DNA from: an uncultured Chloroflexia bacterium | Lineage (GTDB): Bacteria; Chloroflexota; Limnocylindria; Limnocylindrales; CSP1-4 | Reading direction: 5' to 3' | Assembly (NCBI GenBank): GCA_963776925.1 | Contig: CAVZON010000002.1 | Location: forward strand, 66,130-130,129 | DNA: 64,000 nucleotides | Part shown: positions 5,318 to 15,296 of the stretch, one piece after another | Layout of the letters: each line of letters starts with the position of its first letter | How positions within the stretch are numbered: the first letter of the stretch is position 1 | The notes under the pieces: model-generated | What the model saw: the letters and a program-made list of their open reading frames with translations, nothing else | Databases searched by the model: none | What the model was told of the DNA's origin: nothing | Made by a program: the position numbers and the translations under genes

Positions 5318-5408
5318 CCCGCGTTTGGTCGCGTCCCCGGGTGCAACAGGTCCGTGACGGGGCCCGATTACCGTTGCGTGTCCGGGGCAAGCGCGACCGA
5401 GGGAGTCC

Positions 5409-5966
5409 GTGGACCAGCGCGAGCTCGTCGAGCGAGCCGCTCGAGGCGATCACGATGCGTTCGCCTTGCTCGTCGGCGCGTCCATCGCCCGGCTGGAAGC
5501 CGTCTCCCGCCTCATCCTCCGGGACCAGGAGCTCGCGCGGGACGCCGTCCAGGATGCCTACATCCGCGCCTGGCGCGACCTGCCGGGCCTGCGCGATCCC
5601 GATCGGTTCGATGCCTGGCTCCATCGGCTGACCGTGAACAGCAGCCTCGATGCCATGCGCCGACGCCGACGCCGACCGATCGAGGTCGAGCTGTCGCCGC
5701 TCCTCCCACCGACCGTCGCCGACCAGAGCAGCAGCGTCGTCGACCGGGACCAGCTCGAGCGGGCCTTCCGCCATCTCCGGGCGGACATGCGGGCCGTGCT
5801 CGTCCTGCACTACTACCTCGGCCTGTCCGCCTCCGCGGTGGCCGAGACGCTCGATATCCCGACGGGCACCGCCCAGTCGCGCCTGCACCGGGCGATGGCC
5901 GAACTCCGTGCCGCCGTCGCGGCCGATGAGCGGCTCCCGCTGGATCCCCGGCCGGTCACCGCATGA
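5409..5966 (+). CDS. ECF (sigma-70 family group 4) sigma factor, copy 1.
   Basis: The 185-aa ORF has region 2 (DAVQDAYIRAWRDLPGLRDPDRFDAWLHRLTVN) and region 4 (LVLHYYLGLSASAVAETLDIPTGTAQSRLHRA). Confidence 0.85.
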   Translation: MDQRELVERAARGDHDAFALLVGASIARLEAVSRLILRDQELARDAVQDAYIRAWRDLPGLRDPDRFDAWLHRLTVNSSLDAMRRRRRRPIEVELSPLLPPTVADQSSSVVDRDQLERAFRHLRADMRAVLVLHYYLGLSASAVAETLDIPTGTAQSRLHRAMAELRAAVAADERLPLDPRPVTA

Positions 5967-7189
5967 ACCGACCGGACGCCCTCGAGCGCCAGCTCACTGA
6001 CTGGTTCGCGGAAGCCGCGTCGCCGCGTGTCCCCGACTACACGGAGGACATCGTCCGGGCCGCCGTCGGCACCCGGCAGCGGCCGCGCTGGAGCTTCTCC
6101 GATCGGTGGCTCCCACGTGGCATCGTCACGGTCGCCCGCGTCAGCACGCGGCCACTCCGATGGCGAACGGTCGGTCTGTTTGCGGCGCTCGCCCTGTCGG
6201 TCGCGGCCCTGGCCGGATCCTTCGTCGGGAGCATCTCACGCTTCCCGCCGCCGTTCGGTCCCGCCGCCAACGGCCTCGTCGCGTACGCCGACCAGGGGGA
6301 CATCCTCGTGGTCGATCCGTCCACCGGTGAGCGGATGCCGATCACCAGCGACGCATCGGTCGACCTGGAGCCGCGCTGGTCCCTCGATGGGACCCGGATC
6401 GCGTTCCTGCGGGCCTCGGGGACCGGGTACCTGCTTGCCATCGTCGATCACGACCGACCGACCCACCTGGTGACCTCGGCTGCCGTCCTCGATATCGACA
6501 CCGACGGCATCGAGTGGTCACCGGACGGTCGCTCGATCATGTTCGCGGGCGCGCCCCAGGGTGCCGGTCTGGGCGGCCTCCACGTCATGGACACCACGTC
6601 GGGCGTCGTCACGAGGGTGGCCGTCGACTTCGGCGGCGAAGCCCACTGGCGTCCTGCGGATGGGCGTCAGCTGATGTTCGTGGACGAGACGGGTACCGGT
6701 CCGATCCTGCGGCTCCTCACGCTCGACGACTTGACCGCGACCGACATCGCCAGACCAGCCACGCCTGCCGGATTCATCAGGCCGACCGGCTGGACGCCGG
6801 ACGGACGCCGCGCCGTGTACATGACGATGGAGCCCGACGGCCCGGCAGTCACCCACGTGCTGGACCTGGAGACCGGCGACGAGGTTCGCATCGACGCGGC
6901 CTTCGCCCACGTCTCGAACGACGGCAGTCGGGTGGTCGGGCTCGACCCGCAGGGCTGGATGTGCGTCGCGCCGACGACGGGCGGGGAGTGCCAGAGGATC
7001 GGGACTCCAGACCTGGCGTACGCGGGGACGACCCGTGCCAGCGTGCAGTGGGCACCGGACGACCGGTGGGTCCTCGTGGATCCGGGGTCGGGTGACGGCG
7101 CCGTGATGCTTGACCCGGACGGGATGACCCTGGAGCAGCCGGCGTGGCGCACATCCGGGGGAGCATCCTGGCAGCGCCTCGCACCCTGA
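5963..7189 (+). CDS. Single-pass membrane protein with an anti-sigma-like N-terminus and a TolB/PD40-like beta-propeller ectodomain.
   Basis: There is an ATGA overlap with the sigma gene. It has one TM helix (LFAALALSVAALAGSFVG) and repeated blades (EPRWSLDGTRIAF, EWSPDGRSIMF, TGWTPDGRRAVY, QWAPDDRWVLV). Confidence 0.6.
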   Translation: MNRPDALERQLTDWFAEAASPRVPDYTEDIVRAAVGTRQRPRWSFSDRWLPRGIVTVARVSTRPLRWRTVGLFAALALSVAALAGSFVGSISRFPPPFGPAANGLVAYADQGDILVVDPSTGERMPITSDASVDLEPRWSLDGTRIAFLRASGTGYLLAIVDHDRPTHLVTSAAVLDIDTDGIEWSPDGRSIMFAGAPQGAGLGGLHVMDTTSGVVTRVAVDFGGEAHWRPADGRQLMFVDETGTGPILRLLTLDDLTATDIARPATPAGFIRPTGWTPDGRRAVYMTMEPDGPAVTHVLDLETGDEVRIDAAFAHVSNDGSRVVGLDPQGWMCVAPTTGGECQRIGTPDLAYAGTTRASVQWAPDDRWVLVDPGSGDGAVMLDPDGMTLEQPAWRTSGGASWQRLAP

Positions 7190-9196: not shown

Positions 9197-9407
9197 CAGG
9201 GTTCGCTACCGGGGATCCGGGCTCGATCGCTGCTGTGCCAGCTGGATGGGATCGCCGTGTGGCAGGTCGTGGCTACGAGGGTCGCCTGGGGAGATCGGAA
9301 CATCGGTCAACCGTACGGACCGGGACCCGGGCCGGTCAACCGGCCCTGCCGAGCGGCGGCCTTGCATCCCACCGCCACTTGGTGGGCGAACGGGCCGGCG
9401 CACCAGA

Positions 9408-9898
9408 TCATCCCCGATCCTCGGAGGTCGCCATCCCGCGATCGACGAGGTAGGAATCGCGGTCATCGCCGAGGAGGAACCGCGGGCCGTCGCCCGCCCC
9501 CGCGGCGGCATCCTGCGGGTTATACAGACGGCACGTCGCCAGCGATAGGCACCCGCAGCCGATGCAACGACGTGAGCGTCTCGCGCAGCTGCTCGAGCTC
9601 GGCCATCCGTGCGTCGAGCCGGACGGCGCATCGCCCGCGACAGCGACGCCCAGTGCGCCTTCGTCGGCGCGCGATCGAGCGGGAGACCGGCGAGCAGCGT
9701 CGGCGATCTCGTCGAGGGTGAGCCCCACGCGCTGCGCCGACCGGATGAACGCGAGCCGCCGAAGCACGTGCCGCGGATAGACGCGATGCCCGCCGGGCGT
9801 CCGGGCCGCGACGGCATCAGGCCGCTCGTCCTCGTAGAAGCGGATCGCGCGCGGTCGCGTGACCGCTGCGCGCCGCGAGCGTCGCCGATCGTGAGCAC
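9408..9898 (-). pseudogene. soxR: SoxR-type MerR-family redox sensor, broken by at least 4 frameshifts.
   Basis: The pieces are LTIGD.., AIRFYEDE..GGHRVYPRHVLRRLAFIRSAQRVGLTLDEIA, LPLDRAPTKAHWASLS, RMAELEQLRETL, and the [2Fe-2S] motif CIGCGCLSLATCRLYNPQD. They are spread over all three minus-strand frames. Confidence 0.75.
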
Positions 9899-9932
9899 GT
9901 CGTCCTTCGCGGCCACGGTCACGCACGCATCC

Positions 9933-9963
9933 TTGACTTCAAGTGCACTTGAACTCGTAGCGT
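9933..9963 (+). promoter_or_regulatory. MerR/SoxR-type promoter: TTGACT, a 19-nt spacer holding the perfect palindrome TTCAAGTGCACTTGAA, then TAGCGT.
   Basis: Read directly at 9933-9963, between the divergent soxR and transketolase genes. A 19-bp spacer and a CAAGT..ACTTG palindrome are hallmarks of SoxR boxes. Confidence 0.55.
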
Positions 9964-9971
9964 GCGCCGCC

Positions 9972-10667
9972 ATGGATACCACGACCGGACGCGCTCGCGC
10001 GCGTCCGCGCGCTGATGGCCCGGGCGACCGGCGACGAGAAGCACGAGGAGAGCAGCACCTCGACCCTCGACGCGCTGTGGGTCCTGTACGACCGAGTCCT
10101 GCGCGTGGATCCGGCCGATCCGCAAGGGACCGGAGCGCGACCGGTTCGTCCTCAGCGAAGGGCCACGGGCCGGCGTCGCTGTACGCCATCCTCGCGCACG
10201 AAGGGGTTCTTCCCGAGCCGACGGCTCGACACGGTTCATGGAGCACGACGGTCGGCTCGGCTCGCACCCGGACCGGACGCTGGTGCCCGGGATCGAGGCG
10301 TCGACCGGGTCGCTCGGGCACGGCTCGCGATCGCGGTCGGGATCGCGCTCGCGCTGCGCGCCAAGGGTGCACACGAGCCGCGGGACGATCTGCCTCGTCG
10401 GGCGACGCCGAGATGAACGAGGGCTCGAACTGGGAGGCGGTGCTCCTGGCGCCGCACCTGCGGCTCGGCAACCTCACGATGCTCGTGATCGACAACCACA
10501 GCTCGACGACCCGAATGTCGCCGTGGGAGGCGCGGCTCGGCGCGTTCGGGTGGGACGTCGCCGCGGTCGACGGGCACGACAGGACGCGCTCGAGACGGCC
10601 CTCCCCGACGTCGCCACGACCGCACGCCAGTCGCGGTGGTCGCCGACATCCCCCAGGGGAGTGGTGA
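9972..10667 (+). pseudogene. Transketolase, N-terminal (TPP-binding) subunit of a split transketolase, with multiple frameshifts.
   Basis: Fragments STLDALWVLYDRVLRVDPADP, RDRFVLS.G, GSHPDRTLVPGIEASTGSLGHG and GDAEMNEGSNWEAVLLAPHLRLGNLTMLVIDNH are scattered across frames. Confidence 0.75.
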
Positions 10668-10676
10668 TGGCCGACG

Positions 10677-11576
10677 ATGCGGGCCGCGTTCGCGCGGACG
10701 GCGAGCGCCCTGCTCGACGAAGACCCACGGGTGGCGCTCGTGCTCGCCGAGATCAGCGAGGCGGTACCTGACGGCGCGCGATCGCCGGCACCCGGAGCGG
10801 GCGATCAACATCGGGATCGCGGAGGCAGGCGATGGTGGGCGTCGCGGCCGGCTTCGCGATGGAGGGGTTCCACCCGATCGCCCACTCGATCGGCGCCGTT
10901 CGTCGCCGAGCGGCCCGTACGAACAGATGAAGCTCGACATCGGCTACCAGGGGCTCGGTGGGACGTTCGTGGCGATCGGTGGTTCCTACGACTACGCGGC
11001 CGAGGGCGCGACGCACCACGCGCCCGGTGACGTGGGGGTGATGCGCGCGATCCCCCGGATGCAGGTGCTGGCGCCGGGTCACGGCGCACGAGGTCGAGCC
11101 GCTCCTGCGCGCGATCTACGCGAACGGCCGAGCCGACGTACGTTCGGACCAGCTCGACGGCCAACCCGACGCCGTCGCGTGGCGGTCGGCCGCATCGAGG
11201 TGCTGCGCACGCGGCGACCGGCGCCACGATCGTGGCGGTCGGGCCGATGGCGACGAGAACCCTCGCGGCGGTCGCCGACCTCGATGTGACCGTCCTGTAC
11301 GCGACGAGCATGCGGCCGTTCGACGCCGCGACCCTCGCCGCCGTCGCGGCGACGGGCCGGTCGTGATCGTGGTCGAACCCTGCTACGAGGGGACGATGGT
11401 GCCGGTGCTTGCCGAGGCGCTGCGGCACGTGCCGTCGCGATTCAATTCGATCGGGCGTTCCGCGGGCCTTCATCCACGGCTATGGGACCGCCGAGGACCT
11501 CGATGCCAAGGTCGGACTGGATGTCGCCGGGATCCGGCGTCGGGTACTCGCAGCCCTTGGCGGCGTCGAGCCGTGA
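10677..11576 (+). pseudogene. Transketolase, C-terminal (pyrimidine-binding) subunit, with multiple frameshifts.
   Basis: Fragments MRAAFARTASALLDEDPRVALVLAEIS, HPERAINIGIAEAG, YEQMKLDIGYQGLGGTFVAIGGSYDYAAEGATHHAPGDVGVMRAIPRMQVLAPGH and VVEPCYEGTMVPVLAEAL lie in different frames. Confidence 0.75.
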
Positions 11577-11586
11577 CCGGGGGGAG

Positions 11587-11661
11587 TGGAGCCGACACTC
11601 GGATTTGAACCGAGGACCTGCTGTTTACGAAACAGCTGCTCTACCGCTGAGCTATGTCGGC
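11587..11661 (-). tRNA. tRNA-Thr (anticodon CGT), with encoded CCA.
   Basis: The reverse complement is GCCGACA-TA-GCTC-AGCGGTA-GAGC-A-GCTGT-TTCGTAA-ACAGC-AGGTC-CTCGG-TTCAAAT-CCGAG-TGTCGGC-T-CCA. It folds into a full cloverleaf with anticodon CGT. Confidence 0.9.
11625..11661. repeat. Direct repeat copy 1 (37 bp). It equals tRNA-Thr positions 1-37, from the 5' end to the anticodon loop.
   Basis: ttacgaaacagctgctctaccgctgagctatgtcggc is identical to 15092..15128. Confidence 0.85.
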
Positions 11662-11960
11662 GCCGATCAACAATAGCCGATGCTCACGGACATCAGCTTT
11701 TCGCGGTCACACGACCACTCTCGAGATCGCGCCCAAGACGCTAGCACAACGCTCGAACAGCTGATGAGTGTGCTGATGGCCGAGGGCGACGCGGCACGTA
11801 GCGGTCCTGAAAGCGCACAAGCGTTCCATCCTTCGATGCGACTGTCGTTCAGGTTTCAGCCACCTCGACCCTGGGCGGCGACCGAACTGCCTTCCACCAA
11901 CCATCGCTATGCGGGCGGAGTCATCCTCTGCACACGGCAGAGCGAGGGACTTCGACGATC

Positions 11961-12542
11961 GTGGATAGCGTCCTGGAGGCACCGGTGATCCGAACGGGCG
12001 AAACAGCGCTCGTGCAACGCGCCTGCAGAGGCGACCACGAGGCGTTCGCCGCCCTCGTCGACGCTCGGCTTGCGGCGACGTTCCGGACCGCACTAGCCAT
12101 CCTCGGCAATGAGAGCGACGCCCGCGATGCGACCCAGGAGATCTTTCTGCGGGCCTGGCGGAATCTGCCGGAGCTTCGCGAACCGGACCACTTCTCAGCC
12201 TGGTTCGGCCGGATCGTGGTCAATACCTGTCGCACCGCGATCCGCGGGCGCCGGCGTCGGATCGTCCGCGAGATCTCGGTCGGCGCGCTGCCCGACGACG
12301 GCGAGCAGTCGCCATCCCCGGCGAGCCCACACGACGACCGGACCGCCGACCTCGACGTGCTGGAGCGGGCGCTCGACCGCCTGTCGCTGGCCGATCGGAC
12401 GCTCCTGGTGCTCCATCACTTCGAGCACCTCTCGCTCGGCGAGATCGGCGAGCGGCTCGGCGTGCCGAGCAAGACCGTGAAATCCCGTCTCTTCAGTGCG
12501 CGTCGCTCGCTCGAGCGTGCGCTCGAGGTCGAACGACAATGA
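11961..12542 (+). CDS. ECF sigma factor, copy 2.
   Basis: Region 2 (DATQEIFLRAWRNLPELREPDHFSAWFGRIVVN) and region 4 (LVLHHFEHLSLGEIGERLGVPSKTVKSRLFSA). It is a paralog of the 5409 and 57712 sigmas. Confidence 0.85.
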   Translation: MDSVLEAPVIRTGETALVQRACRGDHEAFAALVDARLAATFRTALAILGNESDARDATQEIFLRAWRNLPELREPDHFSAWFGRIVVNTCRTAIRGRRRRIVREISVGALPDDGEQSPSPASPHDDRTADLDVLERALDRLSLADRTLLVLHHFEHLSLGEIGERLGVPSKTVKSRLFSARRSLERALEVERQ

Positions 12543-14032
12543 ACCGATCCGACTGGCTGATTGACGAACTGATTGAGGCCGCCTTCGAGCGACGCGCTGG
12601 GCGGGCCGATCCAGCCGACCTGCGCGACACCATCGTCGCCTTGAGCGCCGCATCGAGCCAACGCTCGCCGTGGCGGCCGCAGTTCAGGAGCACCATGTCG
12701 ACCTTTGTCCTTAGCCCGGCGTTGCTCAGGGGCGTTGTTGCGGCGACCGTCGTCGGCATGATCGCGGTCGGGGCCGCTTTCTTCGTTACGAGACCCGACC
12801 AGCCCGCGGTCGGCGGACCAAGCCCGACGCCCGGCGCGACGTCCAGCCCGAGCACGCTCTCCAGTCCATCGGCCGGCCCGAGCGCGGCTGTCGTTCCACC
12901 GAGGGCGCCAGCGTGGACCGCCACCGGGGCCATGGCCAAACCTCTCTTCGGCCACAAGGCCACGCTGCTGCCCGACGGCAGAGTGCTCGTCGTGGAGGAC
13001 GTCGTCGACCCGACCGGCCGCCTCATGCGCGCTGAGTTGTACGACCCGGGCACCGGGACATGGGCCTCCACCGCGAGCATGGTCGCGCCACGCTCCAGCT
13101 ACTCGGCCACGTCGTTGGCCGATGGCAAGGTGCTCGTGGCGGGAGGCGCCGATAACTCCGGCGCGCTGGCCTCCGCCGAGGTCTACGATCCGGTCAGGGG
13201 CATGTGGACTGCCACCGGGGCCATGGCCACCGCTCGCTACTATCACACGGCCACACTGCTACGCGATGGCAAGGTGCTCGTTGCGGGCGGCATCGTGGCG
13301 GGTGATGCTGCCGACGACCAGATGCCCCCCGGCGAGCTCTACGACCCGGCCAGCGGAAGCTGGACTGCCACCGGGCCCATGGCCGCCGATCGCTACCTCC
13401 ATACGGCCACGCTGCTACCGGATGGCAAGGTGCTCGTTGTGGGTGGCTTACAGGACGGGTCCCCGGACGGGCCGTTCGCTGAGCTCTATGACCCGCTCAG
13501 CGGGACATGGACGGCAGCCGGGAACATGGCCACCATGCGCTCCTCCCACACGGCGACGTTGCTGCCGAATGGCAAGGTGCTCGTGGCGGGCGGCTATATC
13601 CGCAGCACCCGGGAGCTTTGTGGGCAGCCGGCGGGCTCGCCGAGCGTCGACTGCATGAACCCGCTGGCCTCGGCCGAGCTGTACGACCCACAGACCGGGG
13701 CATGGAGCGCCCCCCAGGACATGGTCGCGCCACGCGCTGGGCACACGGCCACGCTGTTGCCGGATGGCAGGGTGCTCGTGGCCGGCGGCACAGGTAGCGC
13801 CGACACCAGCGCCAGTCGGTTACATGAACCGTTGGCATCCGTCGAGCTCTACGACCCGGCCAGCGGGAGCTGGAGCGCAACCTCGAGCATGGTCGCCTCG
13901 CGCGGCGGTCACACGGCCACGCTGCTGCCCGATGGCAGGGTGCTCGTGGCGGGCGGCATCGGGTTCAAGGTCCCGCCCGGCTCTGTTGATCTGGCATCCG
14001 CCGAGCTGTACGACCCGGGCAGCGGAAATTGA
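12539..14032 (+). CDS. Single-pass membrane protein with an anti-sigma-like N-terminus and a Kelch-repeat beta-propeller ectodomain.
   Basis: There is an ATGA overlap with the sigma gene, a TM helix (VVAATVVGMIAVGAAFFV) and a Pro/Ser linker. These are followed by 6-7 blades marked [AG]E[LV]YDPxxGxW..HTATLLPDG[KR]VLVAGG. Confidence 0.8.
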   Translation: MNRSDWLIDELIEAAFERRAGRADPADLRDTIVALSAASSQRSPWRPQFRSTMSTFVLSPALLRGVVAATVVGMIAVGAAFFVTRPDQPAVGGPSPTPGATSSPSTLSSPSAGPSAAVVPPRAPAWTATGAMAKPLFGHKATLLPDGRVLVVEDVVDPTGRLMRAELYDPGTGTWASTASMVAPRSSYSATSLADGKVLVAGGADNSGALASAEVYDPVRGMWTATGAMATARYYHTATLLRDGKVLVAGGIVAGDAADDQMPPGELYDPASGSWTATGPMAADRYLHTATLLPDGKVLVVGGLQDGSPDGPFAELYDPLSGTWTAAGNMATMRSSHTATLLPNGKVLVAGGYIRSTRELCGQPAGSPSVDCMNPLASAELYDPQTGAWSAPQDMVAPRAGHTATLLPDGRVLVAGGTGSADTSASRLHEPLASVELYDPASGSWSATSSMVASRGGHTATLLPDGRVLVAGGIGFKVPPGSVDLASAELYDPGSGN

Positions 14033-14226
14033 AGTTGCCCTGGTCGGCTATCGGGTTTGAGCCTCGTGGTAGCCGACTATCGGACCGAAACAAGGGGAGA
14101 GTCGTAAAAGCATTGATGCGGGCGAGGCTGAGTATGCCCACAGAGGCGGTGGAGCAGGCCACGGGAGGAACGCCTTCGCTGGCTCATGGTCGCGGTCGTC
14201 CTCTACTCGGCATGCTCGAGACCGCG

Positions 14227-14818
14227 ATGCGGACCGTCTGGCGGTTGCTGGTCCTGTCCCTCGCGCTCGTCGGCTGCTCGGCCGCGGCGACTCCATCCAC
14301 AAGCCCAACGCCCAGCGCAAACGCTGTCGTGGCGGCGTCAGCTTCACCTTCGGCCACGCAGCTCGCGTCACCGTCCACGGGTACGATCGCCAGTCCTCTC
14401 GAAGGACGCTGGGCGACCGGATCTATCCCGACCGCCGACATCAAGGCCTCGATGCTCGCGGCGGGCATCGAGGTGGGCGATGTAGATAGCTGGATCGCCG
14501 AGGTCGGCTCGCCGACCCGGTACTCCTTCCTGCTGGATTTCGCCGGCACGACCTTCACTCACTCAGAGGAGACCCCGGACATGGCGATGCAGGTCGGGGA
14601 GCTTGGAACGTTCGCGCTCTCCGGGAATCGAGCTGGTGCTTACGCCCGGCGAGCCGGGCAACATCGACACGTACACGTTTGAGGCGACCCTGGCGGGCGA
14701 CGAGCTTTCCCTTCGATGCATCGACTCGACCGAGCAGGGAACCACCGAGGACAAGGCGAAGCATCGGCGATACACCATCGCGTTCTACTGCACCGCCCCG
14801 TTCAGACGGCAGCCCTGA
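14227..14818 (+). pseudogene. Lipoprotein of unknown function with one frameshift near 14625.
   Basis: It has a signal peptide and lipobox (MRTVWRLLVLSLALVGCSAA). The C-terminal part (ELVLTPGEPGNIDTYTFEATLAGDELSLRCIDS..) is in ORF 14603..14818. Confidence 0.55.
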
Positions 14819-15091
14819 ACGTCCTCACTCAACACCGAGGCAAGCACCGGGGAGCGTCGTGAAGTCCAACCGAGCGTCCAGCTGTCATCCAAGGATCTCC
14901 CGAGGAGATGACTGTTGAACCACGCGTGGACCCGCCGATTCCCACCCAAGTCAGGGCATCTGGGTCGTCTCGGAGGCGATCGGCCCGCAGCGTCGGTCTA
15001 CGACGGTCATGGGTTGGAGCCGAATAGCTGATACGTGTGCCCGTTTGTATCGACCCCTCAAGCACGGTAGCACTGCGCAGAGGCCAGAGAC

Positions 15092-15128
15092 TTACGAAAC
15101 AGCTGCTCTACCGCTGAGCTATGTCGGC
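15092..15128. repeat. Direct repeat copy 2: an orphan 5' half of tRNA-Thr.
   Basis: Identical over 37 bp to 11625..11661. Beyond the anticodon-loop position the sequence diverges, with no anticodon-stem 3' strand and no T arm. Confidence 0.85.
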
Positions 15129-15243
15129 CGGAGCGCGAGTATAGGAGGCGATGCTCTCGATCAGGAGCTGTCCCACGCCCGAGGGTCGTGCGCCTCGGTG
15201 ACGGTCCGCAGCCTTCCGATGCGTCGTTGACGCAACCGGATAG

Positions 15244-15278
15244 TTGCTATACCGTGAGTAGCAACCACATGGTTGCTA
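15244..15278 (+). promoter_or_regulatory. Candidate ArsR-family operator made of overlapping palindromes: GTTGCTA-N9-TAGCAAC and TAGCAACCA-CA-TGGTTGCTA.
   Basis: Read at 15244-15278, 20-50 nt upstream of the SRPBCC-ArsR-DUF899 operon start (RBS AGGAGA, ATG 15297). Confidence 0.4.
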
Positions 15279-15296
15279 CTGCACAGGAGAAATGAC

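Follow-up and report, generated by a model that had tools for sequence, protein, structure and literature searches.

Integrase-less cassettes bounded by a unit with a tRNA 5' half recur upstream of tRNA-Thr(CGT) in soil Chloroflexota

The DNA analyzed here is a 64-kb stretch from an uncultured Chloroflexia bacterium of the Limnocylindrales (contig CAVZON010000002.1, positions 66,130 to 130,129; hereafter the window), in which an intact tRNA-Thr(CGT) gene is accompanied on its 5' side by a displaced copy of its own 5' half. The segment between both copies is one member of a family, previously unnoticed, of cassettes that lack an integrase, are bounded by a conserved unit and form arrays upstream of tRNA-Thr(CGT). 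The main finding is thus wider than the locus itself, as the family is recurrent. We give a probability of roughly 0.6 to the reading that the segment is a cassette that was recombined into the anticodon loop of the tRNA gene by a recombinase supplied in trans. Integration into tRNA genes is textbook knowledge, but for elements that carry their own integrase, and cassette arrays are known mainly from integrons. Both ideas meet here, in small cassettes without an integrase that each carry the front half of an essential tRNA gene together with its upstream region and form ordered arrays upstream of this gene, in an abundant but uncultured soil lineage.

A first-pass annotation made from the sequence alone had reported the intact gene and a perfect copy of its positions 1-37, and ARAGORN, Rfam and a repeat search recovered both. 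The gene is the sole tRNA that ARAGORN finds in the window. Its first 37 nucleotides (11625-11661) are repeated exactly, on the same strand and in the same orientation, the distance between the two repeats being 3,430 bp. These nucleotides comprise the 5' strand of the acceptor stem, the whole D arm, the 5' strand of the anticodon stem and the full loop TTCGTAA. Read on the cloverleaf, the repeat ends at the last base of the anticodon loop, i.e. at the boundary between loop and stem. No third copy was located in the window at up to three mismatches, and a match to the 37-mer appeared in none of 100 shuffles, so that no chance match is expected.

The sequences attached to the two copies are parts of one larger unit of about 400 bp. 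In the profile hidden Markov model (HMM) of this unit, searched with nhmmer, the P arm occupies positions 1-200, the tRNA half 201-237 and the P' arm 238-409. The model found exactly two pieces in the window, one consisting of upstream region, half and P' arm (15171-14932) and the other of P arm and intact tRNA (11842-11624); besides these, neither the model nor the motif searches gave further copies in the window. The P' arm of the window contains TGCGCAGTGCTAC (15067-15079) and ACGGGCACACGTATCAGCTATTCG (15021-15044), and the P' consensus, GTCTC..GCC.T.TGCGCAGTGCTAC...CCGATACAAACGGGCACACTTATCAGCT[AG]TTCG..., is conserved for about 160-170 nt after the half. The P arm is a conserved block of about 180-200 nt that lies upstream of many copies of the 37-mer, in partial and full tRNA genes alike. 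In the window it shows a -10-like sequence, GCTATTGT, directly 5' of the tRNA, and the motif ATCAGCT[AG]TTCG in direct (11754-11765) and inverted (11692-11703) orientation. The short region upstream of the displaced half has a -10-like TATACT and no distal P-arm motif, and resembles the regions upstream of solo tRNA-Thr genes in relatives. A strict scan for sigma-70 consensus promoters passed none in the arms, and the upstream regions of both the displaced half and the intact tRNA are therefore called putative promoters here. An anatomy of P arm plus tRNA at one end and half plus P' arm at the other is what would be expected if DNA carrying a P-half-P' unit had recombined with a resident tRNA gene.

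This anatomy is found in many other genomes. A scan for the 37-mer, with one genome per species, gave at least 119 loci (designated below by L numbers), which were titled nearly all as metagenome-assembled genomes of Limnocylindrales/Chloroflexota and in most of which the 37-mer is part of a full tRNA. Among the matches listed, 17 junctions from 15 sources, the window included, show the half followed by the shared non-tRNA sequence of the P' arm. At least 120 further loci were obtained from metagenomes with a 19-nt P' motif. Over the listed genome and soil-metagenome loci there are at least 98 distinct half-P' sequences and at least 47 cassettes with a boundary at either end, the smallest of 293 bp and the largest of 10 kb; arms and breakpoint of the same kind are seen in more than 100 distinct copies. 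The arrangement of the window, with half and P' arm, cargo, and P arm with full tRNA, is repeated in L111, L071, L088, L142, L157, L206 and others. Other cassettes lie between complete units in arrays, in which all units have one orientation and whose last element is the intact tRNA. L081 and L242 have three units each, and L223 has four complete ones and a P' fragment in 14.5 kb; L141 is a further example. The same cassettes occur with different neighbours: one of L081, which encodes a PIN-domain (VapC-like) toxin, recurs beside other genes in L145, L218 and L107, and the tRNA-proximal sigma/Kelch cassette of L142 and L242 comes after a different cassette in L081. Cassette genes have no preferred orientation (53 sense, 68 antisense) and often form multi-gene operons. 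Domains of extracytoplasmic function (ECF) sigma factors, present in 12 of 116 cassette open reading frames (ORFs), are the leading Pfam class, and the remaining cargo includes PD40 and Kelch propellers, ParA/ArsA ATPases, TetR regulators, methyltransferases and PIN toxins. A different arrangement was observed in L175 (5-684) and L195 (11920-12580), where a complete unit is followed after about 270 bp by a second P' arm with neither P arm nor half; this is a near-empty or rearranged cassette.

One pair of loci shows a filled and an unfilled site. L206 and L223 share a 6.5-kb cassette, and their identity of about 90% extends over this cassette, the P arm and the upstream region into the half, as far as ...TTTCGTAA. 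After this point L206 reads ACAGCAGGTCCTCGGTTCAAATCC..., which is the 3' half of the tRNA followed by flanking DNA, whereas L223 reads GTATCCCGCGCTCTGCGCAGTGCTAC..., which is a P' arm followed by further cassette DNA, in full divergence from L206. The two loci make up a family-level pair, unfilled and filled, with the expected breakpoint, and the comparison indicates that new material was placed next to the tRNA. Junctions of unrelated types at tRNA-Thr (L020, L115, L118 and L103) also diverge right after TTTCGTAA, a count that is biased because the search pattern ended there. The block with the 5' half at 1242-1278 of L118 and the adjacent block of the same contig with the full tRNA at 2474-2548 of L056 put 9.2 kb between half and gene. 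The sequence at the junction has no relation to P', metabolic genes (for a PALP enzyme and a saccharopine dehydrogenase) lie there, and the locus may represent another insertion family at the same site. In L103 (2518-2650), the tRNA-Thr 5' half is followed 22 nt on by a different, complete tRNA-Thr(CGT) with another acceptor stem, possibly a junction at which an entire tRNA came in with the incoming DNA.

Based on these comparisons, we propose that the segment 11662-15091 would be a cassette recombined into the anticodon loop of a resident tRNA-Thr(CGT) gene. The incoming DNA would have carried a composite attachment unit, made of a P arm of about 200 bp with a tRNA-type upstream region, positions 1-37 of the tRNA and a P' arm of about 170 bp. 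A crossover that took place at the 3' edge of the anticodon loop, or just short of it, would then have produced two junctions (Table 1). In the attL junction (15171-14932) the resident upstream region and 5' half would be fused to P', and in the attR junction (11842-11587) P and the incoming 5' half would be fused to the resident 3' half, which would give a working tRNA. The cassette encodes no recognisable recombinase, and its insertion and possible excision or shuffling would depend on one acting in trans, most likely a tyrosine recombinase. Repeated insertion at one tRNA would leave arrays of one orientation with complete P-half-P' units between the cassettes. An insertion bracketed by the intact tRNA and a displaced 5' fragment had been suggested in the first-pass annotation, together with the corollary that the incoming DNA supplied the 5' half and its promoter. 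The insertion reading is supported in outline, and so is the supply of the 5' half and upstream region by the incoming DNA.

Table 1. Coordinates in the window of the tRNA-Thr(CGT) gene, its displaced half, the arms of the unit and the cargo genes
Feature	Position	Strand	Evidence
Intact tRNA-Thr(CGT)	11587..11661	-	ARAGORN; Rfam RF00005, 72.6 bits
P arm, conserved upstream region	11662..11842	-	nhmmer, unit HMM 29-237 at 11842-11624; motif search; alignment with other loci
Cargo gene 1, ECF sigma factor, 193 aa	11961..12542	+	Pfam Sigma70_r2, Sigma70_r4_2, Sigma70_ECF
Cargo gene 2, transmembrane (TM)-Kelch protein, putative anti-sigma	12539..14032	+	Pfam Kelch_1/3/4/6
Cargo gene 3, lipoprotein-like ORF	14212..14818	+	Signal peptide ending LALVGC; two frames; no Pfam match
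P' arm, begins GTCTC right after the tRNA half	14932..15091	-	nhmmer, unit HMM 238-396; motif searches; alignments A1, A5
Displaced 5' half of resident tRNA-Thr(CGT), positions 1-37 (attL core in the proposed model)	15092..15128	-	Exact 37-nt repeat of 11625-11661
Resident upstream region of displaced half	15129..15171	-	nhmmer, unit HMM positions 161-200 only; upstream type 'B'

The consensus of 47 complete units has ATCAGCT[AG]TTCG three times, in direct orientation at about -110 and +60 and inverted at about -42, and a related copy in the -10 region forms a palindrome with the one at -42. The motif resembles the core of the tRNA, AGCAGCTGTTTCG. Repeated protein-binding sites of such kind are expected in an att site, and the core-like repeats suggest binding sites of a recombinase or of an accessory protein. 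Within the P' arm, columns 62-72 of alignment A5 (about 15057-15066 in the window) show a block that exists in three discrete versions, CAAGCGTGG, CCCCGAGTGG and CCGTGCTTGG/A. Their free combination with variants at other places of the arm points to recombination between subfamilies of the unit.

Concerning the enzyme, the first-pass annotation had recognised no integrase gene, and our screens of the window were likewise empty. No integrase was detected among the listed PHROGs families for 49 ORFs of the window, by tblastn with a local tyrosine integrase, or with an HMM built from five local integrases, nor did Pfam identify one among the three cargo ORFs or the listed Pfam and PHROGs families include one for 124 window and locus ORFs. 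One transposase ORF turned up in the Pfam and PHROGs screens of cassette and window/locus ORFs. The ORFs next to the arms, inspected by eye, are ordinary cargo, with no integrase beside arrays or P-arm tRNAs. The lack of an integrase is not peculiar to this locus, since none was recognised in any sampled member of the family. The Pfam and PHROGs screens listed the top 25 families each, and some seeds of the five-integrase HMM were in the wrong frame, so that a very divergent recombinase could have been missed.

Tyrosine integrases that act on tRNA-Thr with the same polarity do exist in this clade. In L039 (196-3017), a tyrosine integrase gene (PF00589) begins right behind the 5' half of tRNA-Thr, and a gene of the TnpB/IS605 OrfB type comes next. 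The sequence downstream of this half differs from P', and L039 is a distinct element at the same tRNA with the same polarity. Relatives of its integrase adjoin the tRNA in L037, L040, L002 and L117, in the last of which the integrase gene lies directly upstream of the intact tRNA; tblastn found none in the window or in 593 kb of metagenome loci. A phage origin of the cassettes was also considered and rejected, since IMG/VR gave no match and neither a phage integrase nor structural modules appeared among the families listed in the PHROGs screens.

Several observations weigh against insertion by a recombinase acting in trans. No recombinase is linked to the P/P' cassette family: the listed Pfam and PHROGs families include no integrase for the 116 ORFs of 47 cassettes, tblastn and HMM searches over 1.59 Mb of sampled loci gave nothing beyond the five integrases of unrelated context (L039, L037, L040, L002 and L117), and gene lists for 10 kb on either side of the arrays in L240-L246 contain none. 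No free or viral attP was found in IMG/VR, from which the junction, the P' motif and the P motif are all absent. The right half-site of the unit core (GTCTCC) is not a mirror of the left one, unlike the classical core of tyrosine recombinases. An empty site joining the transketolase side directly to the ArsR side, which the first-pass annotation had proposed to seek in relatives, was not found, and both flanks together occur in no relative. L110 has the MFS gene on the left in common with the window (85% amino acid identity), but there, too, the tRNA has a P arm, and the cargo is different. In relatives whose SRPBCC-ArsR-DUF899 operon is 84-92% identical to that of the window, the genes to the left are unrelated; in one of these, L245, 80 nt of a P' arm persist at the corresponding position. 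Most of the sampled contigs are short and break at the repeats. Finally, the units are 80-90% alike over about 400 bp, a similarity that could suffice for excision, reinsertion and reshuffling by homologous recombination.

This last point is the basis of the main rival, RecA-driven exchange between units. One ancient event would have made the P-half-P' unit, and unequal crossing-over, loop-out, Campbell-type reinsertion or uptake of unit-flanked DNA would have shuffled the cassettes ever since, with no dedicated recombinase. The lack of any recognised recombinase in cis or nearby, the unbiased gene orientation and a cassette G+C near that of the host are all in keeping with it. However, it leaves unexplained why the unit breaks at one fixed nucleotide of the anticodon loop, where the L020, L115, L118 and L103 junctions break too, and why about 370 bp of non-coding arms with core-like repeats are kept across many species; integrases of the same polarity, moreover, act on tRNA-Thr in the clade. 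We regard exchange by RecA alone as rather unlikely. The P/P' family appears to need either an enzyme whose gene lies elsewhere or homologous recombination among its units, and site-specific recombination by a trans-acting enzyme is most likely the mechanism, although the class of the enzyme, its action in trans and the present mobility of the window's copy are to be taken as presumptive.

An integrase-bearing island or prophage with 5'-fragment polarity, from which the integrase and most genes were later deleted, might also have left this locus as a decayed remnant. One cargo gene is indeed frameshifted, the neighbouring transketolase genes are pseudogenes with multiple frameshifts in a decaying region, and integrase-bearing elements use tRNA-Thr in relatives. 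Yet, independent decay would not keep both arms of about 170-200 bp in some 100 loci, all of them without a recognisable integrase, nor would it give arrays of 1-7 kb cassettes with complete units or place the same cassettes beside different neighbours, which makes this explanation improbable. That half and P' arm are a transcribed structured RNA or leader that regulates the neighbouring genes, with no insertion at all, is highly improbable. A tRNA-type upstream region does precede every copy, and an ECF sigma gene follows on the same strand in L017, L081 and L111. However, RNAalifold predicted for 98 distinct sequences only 15 pairs, almost all inside the invariant tRNA half, with 0 compensatory changes and a covariation term of +0.04; an earlier run with 17 sequences had no covariation either, no Rfam family apart from tRNA matched at E<=1, and downstream genes lie in either orientation, those adjacent in the window being antisense. 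The RNA reading was rejected on these grounds. Chance, or the simple truncation of a duplicated tRNA-Thr gene that the first-pass annotation had named as its alternative, is hardly credible and was rejected as well: nothing beyond the existence of a partial copy speaks for it, no relatives with two full tRNA-Thr genes at comparable spacing were found, and it is contradicted both by the L206/L223 pair and by the conserved family element of about 160 bp to which the half is joined, at the identical nucleotide, in about 100 other loci.

The polarity of the insertion had been described in the first-pass annotation as unusual. It is uncommon but already catalogued, since Islander, which accepts as the product of integration an intact tRNA gene (tDNA) with a displaced 5' fragment upstream of it, or alternatively a 3' fragment downstream, lists 159 tDNA islands with a 5' fragment among 3919 (PMC4383910). 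The window thus belongs in this respect to a known minority class. As in those islands, an end fragment cognate to the intact tDNA and of like orientation lies on its upstream side, the break falls within the anticodon loop (sublocation 'A' of tyrosine integrases) and the insert restores the gene, here by supplying its 5' half and upstream region. Its 3,430 bp lie within the 2-200 kb allowed for islands. However, the element has no tyrosine integrase and would be rejected by the integrase filter; island finders with this requirement miss all P/P' loci. The family differs further from Islander islands in its cassette size (0.3-10 kb), its long, conserved and shared arms and its arrays of several cassettes without an integrase of their own.

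Arrays of small cassettes in the same orientation, separated by a repeated recombination unit, are a point in which the P/P' family resembles integrons. In the one pair examined (L206/L223) the new cassette lies next to the anchoring site, as in integrons; toxin genes occur among the cargo, and the resident promoter-like region at the head of the array points into it. Integron cassette arrays include clusters of attC sites lacking integrase (CALINs), and the P/P' arrays likewise have no adjacent integrase. Yet, the P-half-P' unit is about 400 bp long, conserved in sequence and contains a tRNA 5' half, whereas attC is a hairpin of 60-140 bp whose short palindromes are conserved in structure and not in sequence; no fold is supported for the P-half-P' units. 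Cassette genes point either way, often in multi-gene operons, in contrast to the mostly single, promoterless genes of one direction in integrons, no IntI-type integrase was seen and the anchor is an essential tRNA gene instead of attI. With no IntI, no attC hairpins and no bias in gene orientation, the P/P' cassettes fail the features that define integrons.

Other elements borrow a recombinase, among them the cis-mobilizable elements (CIMEs) that arise by accretion of integrative and conjugative elements (ICEs), the integrative mobile elements exploiting Xer (IMEX) at dif and the pdif modules of Acinetobacter plasmids. These, too, are modules with recombination sites at their ends and no recombinase of their own, which pile up in tandem at a single site and are presumed to be mobilised in trans. 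The window cassette, too, has arms on both sides and no recombinase recognised, and the L206/L223 pair suggests that the arms function as att sites. Here, however, the site is the anticodon loop of tRNA-Thr and neither dif nor fda, the unit carries half of the target gene with its upstream region, and the hosts are uncultured Chloroflexota. We tentatively raise the possibility that Limnocylindria carry an undescribed, integron-like system of gene capture at the anticodon loop of tRNA-Thr(CGT), with cassettes tagged by units of about 400 bp, an unlinked dedicated recombinase and an exchange of ECF sigma/anti-sigma and other regulatory modules among soil lineages by way of the arrays. Should there be a trans-acting recombinase, the family would represent a second, independent solution to modular gene capture and a route for the horizontal movement of ECF sigma/anti-sigma modules. 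The repeats of about 400 bp break short-read assemblies at exactly the P/P' sites.

The ECF sigma, TM-Kelch and lipoprotein genes that the first-pass annotation had placed between the two copies were borne out by Pfam and the ORFs, the lipoprotein-like gene being split in two frames. A homologue of the sigma factor, 63% identical, is encoded in another cassette (L054). The start of the Kelch gene overlaps the stop of the sigma gene by 4 nt, and in its product a single TM segment lies between a cytoplasmic N-terminus and an extracytoplasmic Kelch propeller; gene order and architecture point to an anti-sigma role. An exact-protein look-up of this Kelch protein gave no match. Full-length homologues with 62-74% identity adjoin ECF sigma genes in unit-bounded cassettes of L241 and L242, the pair lying directly upstream of the tRNA-Thr gene in L241 and being present in both orientations in L242. 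The lipoprotein-like gene is made of two ORFs in different frames (14029-14682 and 14603-14818) and switches frame once near 14630 (14600-14640; ...FALSGN | ELVLTPGEPG...), outside any homopolymer. This is either a frameshifted pseudogene or a sequencing or assembly error; with its third gene being frameshifted, the cassette may be ageing.

The insert had also been described as richer in A/T. Its G+C is 0.671 against 0.709 for the window, about 2 standard deviations (sd) under the mean of 3.43-kb windows. The non-coding arms are indeed lower (0.60-0.63 against 0.67-0.71 in other intergenic stretches), but G+C at third codon positions is 0.825 in the sigma gene and 0.831 in the Kelch gene, only about 1 sd under the genes of the window (0.872 +/- 0.044). 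The deviation of the insert is thus weak and comes mostly from the two arms. Being weak, it neither proves nor excludes transfer and provides no independent evidence for it; the composition fits an exchange among organisms of similar G+C.

Several features were noted in the regions that flank the insert. Beside the tRNA's 3' end, the stretch 9200-11580 has no intact ORF and its preferred frame switches every 100-200 bp. Its fragments match Transketolase_N and Transket_pyr and look like two transketolase-subunit genes degraded by many frameshifts, while the surrounding genes are intact. Farther on the same side, a PD40-propeller gene (5963-7189) comes after a second ECF sigma gene (5358-5966); this pair is not flanked by P/P' units, and the region is rich in sigma/anti-sigma pairs. 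On the 12.3-kb contig of L244, either end bears a tRNA-Thr(CGT), the two being inverted relative to each other, and the SRPBCC-ArsR-DUF899 operon is present twice, likewise in inverted copies, with 92% and 84% identity to that of the window; these are either real paralogues or a palindromic artefact of long-read assembly. Upstream of the SRPBCC gene, at 15225-15290 of the window and in L244-L246 (four of four loci), a TTGACG box occurs together with the inverted repeat GTTGCTATA...TAGCAAC, a region that is probably the ArsR-type operator of the operon.

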